Shown: piece by piece, positions 42,806-46,553 of the stretch
How the letters are laid out: each line of letters starts with the position of its first letter
Numbering within the stretch: position 1 is the first letter of the stretch
Source of the DNA: a virus
DNA length: 64,000 nucleotides
Virus record (IMG/VR): IMGVR_UViG_3300035660_000002
Span: 1 to 64,000 of that record
Reading direction: 5' to 3' (one strand)
Position numbers and translations under genes: made by a program
Notes under the pieces: generated by a model
What the model saw: the letters and a program-made list of their open reading frames with translations, nothing else
What the model was told of the DNA's origin: nothing
Databases searched by the model: none

Positions 42806-43714
42806 TTACATATTTTCTTTGGCACTTTGCATCATCTCCAAACAGCACGCCATGAAATTTATCTCATGGTCTGCCACATAAGAATCCCGCGCCATGTATT
42901 CAGCAATTCGTAATCGCTTCTCTGTCTGCTTTATATTGTCTTGCTCTATCTCGCCAATGTTATCAAAGAGATATCGAAAAACCTGAATGTGGTCCAACCT
43001 GTATGCTATCTCGCGCAACCCGTTCATGTTCTTTTCCTTGATGAGCTTCATTACCAGAATGTTCTCGTTCAGGTCCTCACGGATCTCTTTCAGCACCTTC
43101 CCTGTGGTCGAGAGTTGCATGGCATTGATCATGGCGCGCATATCTGGATAATAGGCGTCTACAAGCCCTAGGACGGTGTCTGTGTCGTGTTTCACCTTCT
43201 CCTGCCCAAGGATGCCCTGCAGCTGCTTAAAACATGCCTTTCTGGGCACCTCCTTGAACTCTATGAACTGGCACCGGCTGCGGATCGGTTCGATAATTTT
43301 GTTCAGATAGTTACATGTAAGAATGCAACGACCTCGACCTGCACATTCTTCCATCACATTTCGCATTGCCTGTTGAGCTTCCGGAGTGAGTCCATCCGCC
43401 TCCTCACACAGTATAATACGCCACTTGTGTGATCCACGTATAGCCATAAAATTAGTAAACTTGTTACGCACAACATCGATGCCCCGATCACTACTTGAAT
43501 TCATAATCATCGTATCAGCATTCAGCGTATGCAACAGTATTTTTGCAATCGTAGTTTTACCTGTGCCGGGCTTTCCGCTAAACAAAAGATTAGGAATATC
43601 CCCATTCCTAATGTACTCTTCAAACGTATTACGTATTCCCGGATCAAGCACTACGTCCTCTAACTTCTTAGGTCTATATTTTTCTACCCATAAACTGTCG
43701 AACACGTTTGCCAT
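42806..43714 (-). CDS. gp44: Clamp loader ATPase (RFC/T4 gp44-like)
   Basis: LWVEKYRP, GKPGTGKTT, NSSSDRGID, EEADGL..AQQAMR, IRSRC; start revised to ATG 43714 with GGAGG RBS. Confidence 0.93.
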   Translation of the reverse strand: MANVFDSLWVEKYRPKKLEDVVLDPGIRNTFEEYIRNGDIPNLLFSGKPGTGKTTIAKILLHTLNADTMIMNSSSDRGIDVVRNKFTNFMAIRGSHKWRIILCEEADGLTPEAQQAMRNVMEECAGRGRCILTCNYLNKIIEPIRSRCQFIEFKEVPRKACFKQLQGILGQEKVKHDTDTVLGLVDAYYPDMRAMINAMQLSTTGKVLKEIREDLNENILVMKLIKEKNMNGLREIAYRLDHIQVFRYLFDNIGEIEQDNIKQTEKRLRIAEYMARDSYVADHEINFMACCLEMMQSAKENM

Positions 43715-44618
43715 TAGTATCCTCCTCCACACGTTCTTGCCAAAACTTTTTCCAAAATTTTCTGTTATGCGCCATCTTGCCATGACATACTCTGCACAAA
43801 GATACTAAATTCTTCTCATCTATATGTTTTTTAATGTAATCCACATGATGCACTGATAGTTTTTCCCCAGCTTCTACCTCGGGCACGCCACACAATCTAC
43901 ACTTATATCCGTCCCTGTATCTTATCTGCTCTTTATGTGTCTTCGTCCATCCTAACGGATATGGCACAAATGATATACCGCCGTGCCAATTTCCATTCCT
44001 ATCTCCTCTTATATTTCTGCCAAGGTATTTGTGCAAAGGACAAAACTTATACCTATAGTCCTTAAGGGTTATTCCACAAAACAAACATTTACTGCCTTTT
44101 GCAACCCTACCATCAATGTAACTTCCACAATCCTTCCCATGTGAAATATGCTTCCTACGATCTATGCCCTTTGTTTCATCACTATATTTTTGTCTTAATG
44201 TTATTCCCTCAATACTGCTCCAAAATATAGTTGCTGATTCCTTTTTAGACCTTATCAAAATTTTGTATCTTAAGAGAGCCCGATAAATACTTGCTTCTGC
44301 CCTTCCAAACTCTTTTCCTATGCTATGTATGCTTCTACCTTTGCGCACATACTCTTGCATCAGCATTTCTTTATTCAGCACCTTGGCATATTTGCCTTTT
44401 ACAAAGGCCCACTCTCCGTTACAAGTCTCACATCTTGTAGCATGCCATTGTATTCGCTTACCACAATCAACACAACGATTGATCTTAAGCGTTCTTCCAT
44501 CAATGTATCGTGAGTTGTTCTTACCCTTCTGGGCACAAGATTTACATCGGACAGCCCCGGTTGCCTTAGAGTTCTTTCCCAGAGGCTTCCCGCAATCTTT
44601 ACATTTACCTCTGCCCAT
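43674..44618 (-). CDS. HNH homing endonuclease (Zn-finger repeats)
   Basis: CxxC repeats; IRYRDGYKCRLCG..LSVHHVDY..NLVSLCRVCH..NRKFW. Confidence 0.88.
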   Translation of the reverse strand: MGRGKCKDCGKPLGKNSKATGAVRCKSCAQKGKNNSRYIDGRTLKINRCVDCGKRIQWHATRCETCNGEWAFVKGKYAKVLNKEMLMQEYVRKGRSIHSIGKEFGRAEASIYRALLRYKILIRSKKESATIFWSSIEGITLRQKYSDETKGIDRRKHISHGKDCGSYIDGRVAKGSKCLFCGITLKDYRYKFCPLHKYLGRNIRGDRNGNWHGGISFVPYPLGWTKTHKEQIRYRDGYKCRLCGVPEVEAGEKLSVHHVDYIKKHIDEKNLVSLCRVCHGKMAHNRKFWKKFWQERVEEDTNGKRVRQFMGRKI

Positions 44619-44655
44619 AGATTTCCTCCATTACTGCTATCTGTGCCCAACCTCT

Positions 44656-44931
44656 TTAACGAATAGTCGGCCTCGTAGGCGCCGCCATGTTCTTAGGAGC
44701 AGTCCTTGCCCCGCCTGGGCCGCTTGTCTTCTTTTTCTTCGCAGGTTCGAGAGACACGAGTTGCTGCTCATCGATAGTGTCCTCTACCGTTTTGCCCTCA
44801 GATGTTCTTTTCCGTGACTGAACGACGTACCGAATACATCCATTGAGCCACTTTGTCTTCGCAACAATAACACCTTGAAACCCAGTTATTGTGTCCTTAA
44901 CCTTCTCTCCGACTTCAAACTTAAACTCCAT
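44656..44931 (-). CDS. Conserved phage hypothetical protein (SH3-like)
   Basis: FEVGEKVKDTITGFQGVIV..WLNGCIRY. Confidence 0.7.
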   Translation of the reverse strand: MEFKFEVGEKVKDTITGFQGVIVAKTKWLNGCIRYVVQSRKRTSEGKTVEDTIDEQQLVSLEPAKKKKTSGPGGARTAPKNMAAPTRPTIR

Positions 44932-44932
44932 A

Positions 44933-45103
44933 TCACCCTCCTCTTTGTTTACGACGCCTAATCACAATTTTCTTTATGATATGTTCCCCACTGTTCGCAT
45001 AACGGTATTCAATCTCACGTAGTGCTCCCACAAGAGTATCCCATTGTATCCAATCACCCTTCATTCCATTCATGTATGTAATCCGGTATTCAAACTTATT
45101 CAT
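44933..45103 (-). CDS. Small hypothetical protein (56 aa)
   Basis: Own translation MNKFEYRITYMNG...; AAGG RBS. Confidence 0.45.
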   Translation of the reverse strand: MNKFEYRITYMNGMKGDWIQWDTLVGALREIEYRYANSGEHIIKKIVIRRRKQRGG

Positions 45104-45120
45104 TGTTCCTTTTCGGCCGC

Positions 45121-45197
45121 CGGGGTTGCAGGGATTCGAACCCTAACTCTTGCCTGCCTAGGTACAAGCATCGTGCTACCAACTACACCACAACCCC
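45121..45197 (-). ncRNA. tRNA-like element B with non-canonical anticodon arm
   Basis: Acceptor GGGGTTG/CAACCCC, D arm GTGT-AGTTGGTA-GCAC, T arm TAGGG-TTCGAAT-CCCTG; anticodon arm TGCTTG-TACCTAGG-CAGGCA; no CCA. Confidence 0.75.
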
Positions 45198-45209
45198 CGG
45201 TCGTTCTGA

Positions 45210-45295
45210 CAGGGTGGGCAGGATTTGAACCTGCATTCTGTGGTTTCTGTTTTTCTGTGCACAGCCGCAGCGTCAACCATTTGCGCCACCACCCT
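45210..45295 (-). ncRNA. tRNA-like element A with expanded anticodon loop
   Basis: Acceptor AGGGTGG/CCACCCT, D loop AAATGGTTG, T arm GCAGG-TTCAAAT-CCTGC; about 21-nt loop CTGTGCACAGAAAAACAGAAA between GCGG and CCAC. Confidence 0.72.
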
Positions 45296-45302
45296 AAAGT
45301 AT

Positions 45303-46007
45303 TTATTCCTGTCTCCACAATACGAATGTCAGATCCTTTTCCCTAATTACTACCGGCGCCCCGTCCCCCCGCAGCTCGATAGTAACCACATCGACTGCTT
45401 CCTTGCCTTTACCCTCACGCACTCCCTCGCATGCGGTGAATATCGCCTGCAACTCTTTCTTAGGCAACTTTATCTTTTCCGGCGCCTGTGCTGTCTTATC
45501 AATGAGCTTGGCGCGGTACTTATTCTCGTTCTCCCCGCCTACTCCGAAAGTGTTGCCCTCGAAGAATGCCACGGTCGCGTCCTTAAGCACCGACATGCCC
45601 TTCAGTATCTCTTTGACGACTTCGGCCGACATCTGGATCACGACCGGCTTCCCTGCCTTCTTCATCTTGTCCAGGATGTGCTCACCCTTTTCCGGCCTGT
45701 ATGCCGTGAATATCACGCTCGGATCCGCTGCCATGTATTCAAAGGACTGGTTGCCTGCCTTGACCGTCAGCACACCATCCTTTGCGTAAGATATCTTCGG
45801 CTCGTCCGCAAACCCAAGTATATCAAGAAGCATGCCCAGATTGAATATGCCTATCTCCTCTTTGAACACTTCGTCCTTCTCGCCGTCATACGACACAAGC
45901 AGCGTTTTGTTCGCGTCCTGCACTTCAAACTCGCCTTTCTTCCCCAGCTTGATCATCATGACCAAGCCGCCAAGGTTCGCCTTGCTAAGAACGTTTTTTA
46001 ACATCAC
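45303..46007 (-). CDS. gp45: Sliding clamp, T4 gp45-like
   Basis: IGIFNLGMLLDIL..ISYAKDG..AADPSVI matches gp45 VAIYDLNGFLGIL..AADPSTV as recalled. Confidence 0.85.
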   Translation of the reverse strand: MMLKNVLSKANLGGLVMMIKLGKKGEFEVQDANKTLLVSYDGEKDEVFKEEIGIFNLGMLLDILGFADEPKISYAKDGVLTVKAGNQSFEYMAADPSVIFTAYRPEKGEHILDKMKKAGKPVVIQMSAEVVKEILKGMSVLKDATVAFFEGNTFGVGGENENKYRAKLIDKTAQAPEKIKLPKKELQAIFTACEGVREGKGKEAVDVVTIELRGDGAPVVIREKDLTFVLWRQE

Positions 46008-46257
46008 TACCCTCCTTTGGTTTTTCCTCTGTCCTGTAGCTCTTGTTATCTAAAGACATCCGCGATCCGCCGTCCGTGAACATAGCATATCCCGCAGGGC
46101 TCTTTGCCACCACAGCACGATACTCTTCTTTGTACTTTATAAAAGTCTCCTCTGCAAATTCCAGGTCCTCTCTTGTCGGCACCCAATCCGTCAGTTGGTA
46201 AGGAAACCCTTTGATCTTCGAGTCCTCTCTCGGAATTCCAATCTCTTTTATCATCAT
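45985..46257 (-). CDS. Hypothetical protein
   Basis: Start revised to ATG 46257, overlapping the groES stop. Confidence 0.5.
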   Translation of the reverse strand: MMIKEIGIPREDSKIKGFPYQLTDWVPTREDLEFAEETFIKYKEEYRAVVAKSPAGYAMFTDGGSRMSLDNKSYRTEEKPKEGSDVKKRS

Positions 46258-46553
46258 CTTGCCCCTTCCTTTAATATAGCCACTACATGATTGTTCTCTA
46301 TTATTAAGTAGTTCTCGCCGTCTACCTCGACCGGCACGCCTGCTCTTTTTCCGTATAACACACACTCTCCTACCTTCGCACAGACTGCGTGCCTCTTACC
46401 GTTCTTCATCAAGCATCCTGCGCCTGTTTGCATCACCCGACCCTTGTTGGTCTTTTCCTGGAACATGTCCGGTATTATAATACCGCCCTCGGTCTTATCT
46501 ACCATCGCCTCTTCCTTAATCAACAGGCGCGGTCCTAACAGCTTTAGTGGCAT
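46254..46553 (-). CDS. groES: Co-chaperonin GroES
   Basis: LGPRLLIK..KTEGGIIIPD..G.V..TGAG..VGECVLYGK..GENYLII. Confidence 0.92.
   Translation of the reverse strand: MPLKLLGPRLLIKEEAMVDKTEGGIIIPDMFQEKTNKGRVMQTGAGCLMKNGKRHAVCAKVGECVLYGKRAGVPVEVDGENYLIIENNHVVAILKEGAR

Follow-up and report, generated by a model that had tools for sequence, protein, structure and literature searches.

Phage genome and gene order around the locus

The window, that is, the whole stretch of DNA that was analysed, covers positions 1 to 64,000 of a complete IMG/VR phage record from sediment (IMGVR_UViG_3300035660_000002; 133,462 bp with direct terminal repeats). All genes of the phage lie on the minus strand, the gene calls span 94% of the genome, and standard-code ORFs of at least 100 codons on the coding strand fill 82–100% of every 10-kb block, so that there is no sign of stop-codon reassignment. 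The PolA protein is at most 31% identical to any cultured-phage protein and blastn of the phage returned no match; judged by these comparisons, cultured phages are all far from this genome, and a DnaN-like clamp suggests that the host is bacterial. Four 6-bp palindromes (CGCGCG, CCGCGG, TTCGAA and GCCGGC) are 3–8 fold rarer across the whole genome than expected under a Markov model and there are only 78 CTAG sites in the 133 kb, suggesting either restriction avoidance or a host-like bias.

The minus-strand gene order at the locus is helicase, HNH endonuclease, DnaN-like clamp, small ORFs (one GroES-like), gp45-like clamp, a tRNA look-alike (A), a 12-nt spacer, a second tRNA look-alike (B), a 56-aa ORF, a 91-aa ORF, HNH endonuclease, clamp loader and PolA. 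The features considered below are:

45303..46007, minus strand: gp45-like sliding-clamp gene (phrog_223)
45210..45295, minus strand: tRNA look-alike A, 86 nt (Rfam tRNA 36.3 bits; no ARAGORN call)
45198..45209, minus strand: A–B spacer, 12 nt, UCAGAACGACCG (sequence reading)
45121..45197, minus strand: tRNA look-alike B, whole gene, 77 nt (ARAGORN, Rfam, fold)
45173..45188, minus strand: D arm of B, GUGU-AGUUGGUA-GCAC with G18 G19 (Rfam alignment)
45150..45171, minus strand: remodelled anticodon arm of B, index 27–48 (sequence reading, pair probabilities)
45157–45164, minus strand: anticodon loop of B, UACCUAGG (sequence reading)
45129..45145, minus strand: T arm of B, UAGGG-UUCGAAU-CCCUG (Rfam alignment)
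44933..45103, minus strand: 56-aa ORF directly 3' of B (local rate control)
43674–44618, minus strand: HNH endonuclease gene between the 91-aa ORF and the clamp loader

A begins 7 nt past the clamp stop codon and B ends 17 nt before the start of the next ORF, and neither promoter-like nor terminator-like sites were found beside the two RNAs. Given this operon position and the absence of a promoter of their own, A and B would be made within the operon transcript and then excised.

The 56-aa ORF belongs to a small family (P0014, P0016, P0017) with invariant F4, Y6, Y10, N12, G13, K15 and W18, and its AF2 model (pLDDT 84) has a beta-beta-beta-alpha-beta order; a search of this protein against the PDB gave no match reaching E = 0.001. 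The protein was considered as an RNA-binding partner and set aside, there being no family match, no significant fold match and no RNA-binding signature. About 110 nt of the HNH gene are shared with the predicted clamp-loader ORF, and the gene is missing from two distant relatives (L003, L005).

Clamps 80% identical to the gp45-like clamp were found on two Logan contigs of 75 kb and 24 kb (P0002 and P0003). In the distant relatives L003–L010, with clamps 42–48% identical, the clamp gene is followed by a 95-aa ORF and the clamp loader, or by the clamp loader directly, and the locus holds neither a tRNA-type match nor an HNH gene. The absence of A and B from these relatives indicates that the pair is a lineage-specific acquisition and that the RNAs are dispensable for the phage lineage as a whole.

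Two tRNA look-alikes that depart from tRNA in the anticodon arm

RF00005, the Rfam tRNA family, has only two matches in the complete genome, A and B, and the anomalies of both are limited to the anticodon arm. B is aligned to the family end to end with 46.3 bits, above the gathering score of 29 (E-value 4e-8 in a 2.5-kb scan and 5e-10 in the whole genome), and so passes a general test of tRNA shape; its minimum-energy fold is the cloverleaf, at -30.2 kcal/mol (z = -2.1). It is also the sole ARAGORN gene in the window, called tRNA-??? with no isotype, in agreement with the expectation in an earlier sequence-only reading of this DNA that such programs would return an undetermined or pseudo call. 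B is a real tRNA-derived gene and no chance match.

In the numbering used here index 1 of B is position 45197, and the letters given in the sequence-only reading are those of the minus strand. The acceptor stem (GGGGUUG/CAACCCC) has seven Watson-Crick pairs with discriminator G, followed by U8 and G9. The D stem pairs are G-C, U-A, G-C and U.G, closing the D loop AGUUGGUA, and the whole D arm is identical to that of phage tRNA-Trp, Gln, His and Gly genes. The T stem consists of U.G, A-U and three G-C pairs around the loop UUCGAAU, and the variable region is AGAGU (5 nt). The three arms had been described as perfect; this is true of the acceptor, while the D and T stems contain one G.U pair each. 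With the elbow nucleotides G18 G19 and U54 U55 C56 present, all stems and tertiary-contact bases are intact. As had been noted, no CCA is encoded, the 3' flank being GCGGCC. The identity elements (G73, G1-C72 and U at position 20) are ambiguous.

The anticodon arm is rebuilt. After G26 there is an extra A27, then the stem UGCUUG/CAGGCA (28–33/42–47) around the loop UACCUAGG, and A48. The sequence-only reading had reported a 6-bp stem with an 8-nt loop, an extra nucleotide past the D stem, a CCUAGG palindrome in the loop and the lack of a U33-type turn, and all four stand: the extra nucleotide is A27 and an A occupies the U33-equivalent position. The stem pairs have probabilities of 0.79–0.99. 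In addition, the loop-end bases U34 and G41 pair with a probability of 0.95, so that in the minimum-energy structure the arm consists of 7 bp and a 6-nt loop, ACCUAG. The alternative register chosen by ARAGORN (5 bp and a 6-nt loop) has a probability of 0.004.

In A, 29 nt replace the usual 17-nt anticodon arm and comprise the 10-nt palindrome CUGUGCACAG as well as three copies of ACAGAA; such an arm cannot decode. Short tandem repeats on the 3' side are a feature of both arms, as AGGC-AGGC in B and ACAGAA in A. The acceptor of A, AGGGUGG with G73, resembles that of bacterial tRNA-Trp.

An archaeal-type intron in A or B was considered and judged unlikely from inspection of both by eye for a bulge-helix-bulge motif. 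A search of the phage transcriptome for antisense targets of the A and B arms gave none of at least 11 nt. A restriction-site role for CCTAGG and GTGCAC was rejected, both motifs occurring at the expected genome frequency.

Conservation of the RNA block in a relative

The protein database was queried with a spurious 72-codon frame that runs through A and B, and gave a single match, the 120-aa protein P0013 encoded on a 1080-bp ENA contig; the spurious ORF on the plus strand had no database relative. The first 56 residues of P0013 correspond to translated A nt 20–86, spacer, B and trailer in a gap-free alignment with 49 identities among the 56 positions, and the last ~60 residues are homologous to the 56-aa ORF with 54% amino-acid identity. 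A frame change in the trailer of this relative fuses the frame of the RNA block to the 56-aa ORF homologue, which is why a gene caller recorded the protein. Back-translation of P0013 fixes about 60% of the bases, the remaining ~40% (third codon positions, including A35, U38 and G41 of the B loop) being unseen, and the comparison is thus one with a single relative seen through its protein translation. Differences at fixable bases were distributed as follows:

A nt 20–86: 0 of 40 fixable bases differ
Spacer: 0 of 7 fixable bases differ
B: 4 of 46 fixable bases differ
3' trailer: 4 of 8 fixable bases differ
56-aa coding gene: 32 of 104 fixable bases differ

The RNA block of A, spacer and B (4/93) therefore differs from both the 56-aa gene (32/104; Fisher p = 7e-7) and the 3' trailer (4/8; p = 0.001); the neighbouring gene is about sevenfold more diverged than the block (31% of fixable bases, with 50% for the trailer), and on the 3' side the conserved island reaches no further than the tRNA shape of B. 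Two of the four changes in B preserve or strengthen base pairs: U31 to C turns a U.G pair into C-G, taking the arm from -8.3 to -11.0 kcal/mol, and C66 to U keeps the T-stem pair with G56 as G.U. The other two lie where the arm meets the variable region. Without gaps against P0013, both enlarged arms keep their length base for base, and in the arm of B every fixable base is kept save U31 and A48. The claim that retention of the stems argues against random decay is thus borne out, in that the relative retains the enlarged arm with few changes and no indels, and the one visible relative does not carry the normal 7-nt loop that would have counted against that reading.

From this comparison, which covers one relative and leaves third positions unseen, the odd arms of A and B are very probably real and under selection. 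Recent horizontal transfer of the A–spacer–B block alone would mimic selection. Co-conversion with the HNH gene does not account for the conservation, since the diverged 56-aa gene separates the RNAs from the HNH gene.

No homologue turned up in IMG/VR DNA scanned with exact and degenerate forms of the B arm, the loop joined to the T arm, the D arm, and the 3' half of each look-alike; the matches were unrelated tRNAs. The 3' half of B matched in GTDB only Rickettsiales tRNA-Lys and pieces of DPANN archaeal tRNAs and identified neither a host nor a parent tRNA, and BLAST against phages and E. coli gave generic tRNA similarity to the tRNA-Leu of phage ZC03 or no match.

Interpretation of A and B and competing explanations

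We read A and B as selected, non-decoding tRNA mimics that act in trans, with a probability of roughly 0.55. The intact, conserved body fits RNase P, 3' processing, a CCA-adding enzyme and elbow-binding proteins. A rival reading is that the RNAs are processing signals and nothing else, with A and B serving in cis as RNase P and RNase Z sites at which the transcript of the replication operon is severed behind the clamp gene and ahead of the genes downstream, and the released RNAs having no role. The tight spacing from the clamp stop codon to the next start and the lack of a promoter or terminator of their own agree with such a function. For cleavage by RNase P and maturation of the 3' end an acceptor-T minihelix is sufficient. 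Operon mRNAs and tRNA-like substrates that are not tRNAs are known targets of RNase P (PMC11143913). However, a processing signal leaves the conservation of the odd arms unexplained, including the whole 29-nt arm of A at every fixable base, and relatives do without such an element; we consider this explanation unlikely, and the unexplained conservation of the arms is the reason for favouring trans-acting mimics.

Another possibility is that an acquired tRNA is decaying as a pseudogene, its anticodon loop having been broken by small insertions or duplications. The AGGC-AGGC and ACAGAA repeats are of the kind that such events would leave, tRNA-??? calls by ARAGORN are frequent in phage tRNA clusters, and B is missing from more distant relatives. 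Against this, a block that differs at 4 of 93 bases beside a gene at 31% and a trailer at 50%, with pair-preserving changes and no indels, does not have the pattern of decay; the stems and tertiary-contact bases of B are all intact; and, as worked out from the sequence, no single deletion gives B a canonical loop. Decay is accordingly improbable.

The sequence-only reading had held that B is no ordinary decoder, and its arm geometry, the A and G found in place of U33 and A37, and the lack of an isotype support this. A canonical elongator has a 5-bp anticodon stem, a single base 26 and a 7-nt loop with U33 and a purine at 37. B has the extra A27, a stem of 6–7 bp, a loop of 8 or 6 nt and an A at the 33-equivalent. 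The same reading had left room for a recoding tRNA, in which an open 8-nt loop would present CCUA (positions 3–6) to read UAGG with a +1 shift, or CUA to read UAG, so that particular phage or host proteins would be extended or fused. CCUA is indeed placed exactly as the four-base anticodons in 8-nt-loop suppressors, and a 6-bp stem with NCUA resembles the engineered tRNA-Pyl decoders of UAGN (PMC4764823). The loop, read as U-A-CCUA-G-G, nevertheless differs from those of quadruplet and +1 suppressors in the A at 33 and in the U34.G41 pair, which shuts it to 6 nt, and when positions 32, 33, 37 and 38 were randomised in selections of UAGN-decoding tRNAs, all winners kept U33 and A37 (PMC4764823). 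By tRNA geometry, the extra A27 together with a stem 1–2 bp longer would shift the anticodon relative to the elbow.

The genes of the phage give no more room for recoding than the RNA does. Of the 176 gene calls, 78 stop at TAA, 55 at TGA and 43 at TAG. An amber suppressor would present CUA at positions 34–36 of a 7-nt loop and go with in-frame TAG in genes. The reading frame stays open beyond the stop at 9 of 43 TAG and 12 of 77 TAA codons, so that read-through is not enriched at TAG, and the code is standard throughout. TAGG is not avoided: it makes up 11 of the 43 TAG stops, each followed by a Shine-Dalgarno motif, and the one that has a +1 neighbour is followed by a gene with its own Shine-Dalgarno and ATG. 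Within the +1 overlaps of phage genes a single in-frame AGGU was found, three codons before the stop of a 551-aa gene, and this looks like an ordinary junction, the downstream gene having its own Shine-Dalgarno and ATG; there is no further in-frame UAGG, AGGU or CUAG in these overlaps, and none that lacks a Shine-Dalgarno and start codon of its own downstream. With a standard code, no excess of continuation after TAG, no +1 junction and a partner, A, that is wholly unable to decode, the recoding option did not hold up and appears very doubtful.

A tRNA-Pyl has a 6-bp anticodon stem, a 3-nt variable loop, one base between acceptor and D stem, a small D loop that lacks G18 G19, and the anticodon CUA. 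B shares only the 6-bp stem, having U8 G9, G18 G19, UUCGAAU and a 5-nt variable region. Taken together, B is probably non-decoding.

Finally, a DNA-level element (a tRNA-derived recombination or attachment site, a homing-endonuclease target or a replication-origin feature) is highly improbable, despite the replication module, the HNH genes nearby and the palindromes CCTAGG and CTGTGCACAG, given that CCTAGG and GTGCAC occur at the expected frequency, that conservation ends with the tRNA shape and the changes preserve RNA pairs, and that the genome has direct terminal repeats.

Proposed action of A and B as tRNA mimics

For A and B as trans-acting mimics, RNase P would cut the 5' ends from the operon transcript, and host processing and CCA addition would form the 3' ends, leaving stable RNAs of 77 and 86 nt that act in trans; splitting of the operon mRNA by the excision may be a side effect. 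No genes for a CCA-adding enzyme, Rnl1, Rnl2, RtcB, PTH2 or Pth, which would have linked the phage to conflict over tRNAs, were found among those of the phage. The tRNA-shaped body would provide processing, stability and docking on a tRNA-binding factor of host or phage, and the rebuilt arm would either confer specificity or turn the RNA into a pseudo-substrate that can be neither cleaved nor translated, such as a sponge for a defence enzyme that targets tRNAs. The sponge role in particular is offered tentatively. The sequence-only reading had likewise put B forward as a candidate decoy, for anticodon nucleases or for uncharged-tRNA sensors. On a counter-defence reading, A and B would be processed and CCA-tailed, with their anticodon loops sealed into helices and so barred from translation, and would soak up or jam a host enzyme such as an anticodon nuclease, an acceptor-end modifier or a Schlafen-type nuclease; that they form a new class of phage counter-defence RNA is a speculative proposal. 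The loop of B shows no resemblance to known nuclease targets.

The usual explanation for phage tRNA genes is codon supply or, more recently, the replacement of host tRNAs that defence nucleases have destroyed. A non-decoding tRNA shape that evolves about seven times more slowly than the neighbouring gene points to a third use, as a mimic. We know of no phage RNA for which decoy action has been shown.

Phage decoders that evade anticodon nucleases include the T5 tRNA-Lys acting against PARIS (PMC11464382) and a tRNA-Tyr acting against retron effectors (PMC11555353), and loop variants of phage tRNAs have been described in the context of tRNA-targeting defence (PMC10264068). These and B have altered anticodon stem-loops in phage tRNA genes in common, but the former are functional decoders with 7-nt loops whereas B in all likelihood is not; against nucleases, it could therefore act only as a decoy.

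Comparison with known tRNA-like RNAs

The closest likeness is to T4 species 1 and 2 and the stable RNAs of the T-even phages and T5, which like B are phage-encoded, tRNA-shaped and non-decoding and, as presumed for A and B, would be released from a longer transcript by RNase P. RNAs of the T4 species 1 and 2 type are about 120–140 nt and longer than A and B. To our knowledge, the stable RNAs of this kind in T4 and T5 have gone about fifty years without an assigned role. They also lie in large clusters of ordinary tRNA genes, whereas A and B stand alone in a replication operon and differ from tRNA in the anticodon arm only; a small two-gene case with a clear contrast in rates is a tractable test ground for RNAs of this type. 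The T-even and T5 tRNA-like molecules were catalogued by Moen et al. 1978, to which a passage of PMC11143913 refers.

The suppressors sufD, sufJ and SufB2 and the UAGN-decoding tRNA-Pyl are like B in a possible 8-nt loop with CCUA at positions 3–6 (PMC4238358, PMC4764823), and tRNA-Pyl also in the 6-bp anticodon stem (PMC4764823). B differs from the 8-nt-loop suppressors in A33 and G37, loop ends that can pair, the extra base between 26 and 27 and the lack of a cognate shift site. The tRNA-Other of Bacillus cereus is, like B, tRNA-derived and outside translation, and has a cellular effect; it is chromosomal with a cloverleaf of normal size (PMC3399842), unlike the phage-borne B. In YrlA, a bacterial Y RNA whose tRNA-like module is closed by a Ro-binding stem, and in mascRNA, a tRNA-like body serves processing and protein docking and the anticodon is absent. 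A YrlA scan had been suggested for B; in an Rfam scan of 44000–46500 with E-values up to 10 neither YrlA nor any other family beyond tRNA was matched, and YrlA is circularly permuted relative to tRNA whereas B is unpermuted. The mascRNA model gave 20.6 bits against a threshold of 42.5.

Annotations of phage genes as 'tRNA-???' or 'pseudo' merit a check of relatives before they are dismissed. Several other loci with unusual tRNA features were met in the database scans. Five loci in DPANN archaeal MAGs (L033–L036 and L038) carry the exact 22-nt T-arm and acceptor 3' half of B, and a full tRNA was not detected upstream; these are probably split or intron-bearing archaeal tRNAs whose identity with B is coincidental. 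On two contigs, of 318 kb and 60 kb (L023:1096–1286, minus strand, and L028:5288–5478, minus strand), one and the same 191-nt spacer separates tRNA-Gln from tRNA-Phe; it contains a T-arm-like stretch and UACCUAGG, received no ARAGORN call, and is possibly a further tRNA look-alike. A jumbo-phage tRNA-??? on a 411-kb IMG/VR contig (L053:608–682, plus strand) has an 8-nt loop with the four-base call tcgc and a D arm that is exactly that of B. In the cultured Pseudomonas phage ZC03 (L011:2255–2336, plus strand), a gene annotated as tRNA-Arg is called tRNA-??? by ARAGORN with the two-base anticodon 'at', and is another non-canonical anticodon loop.
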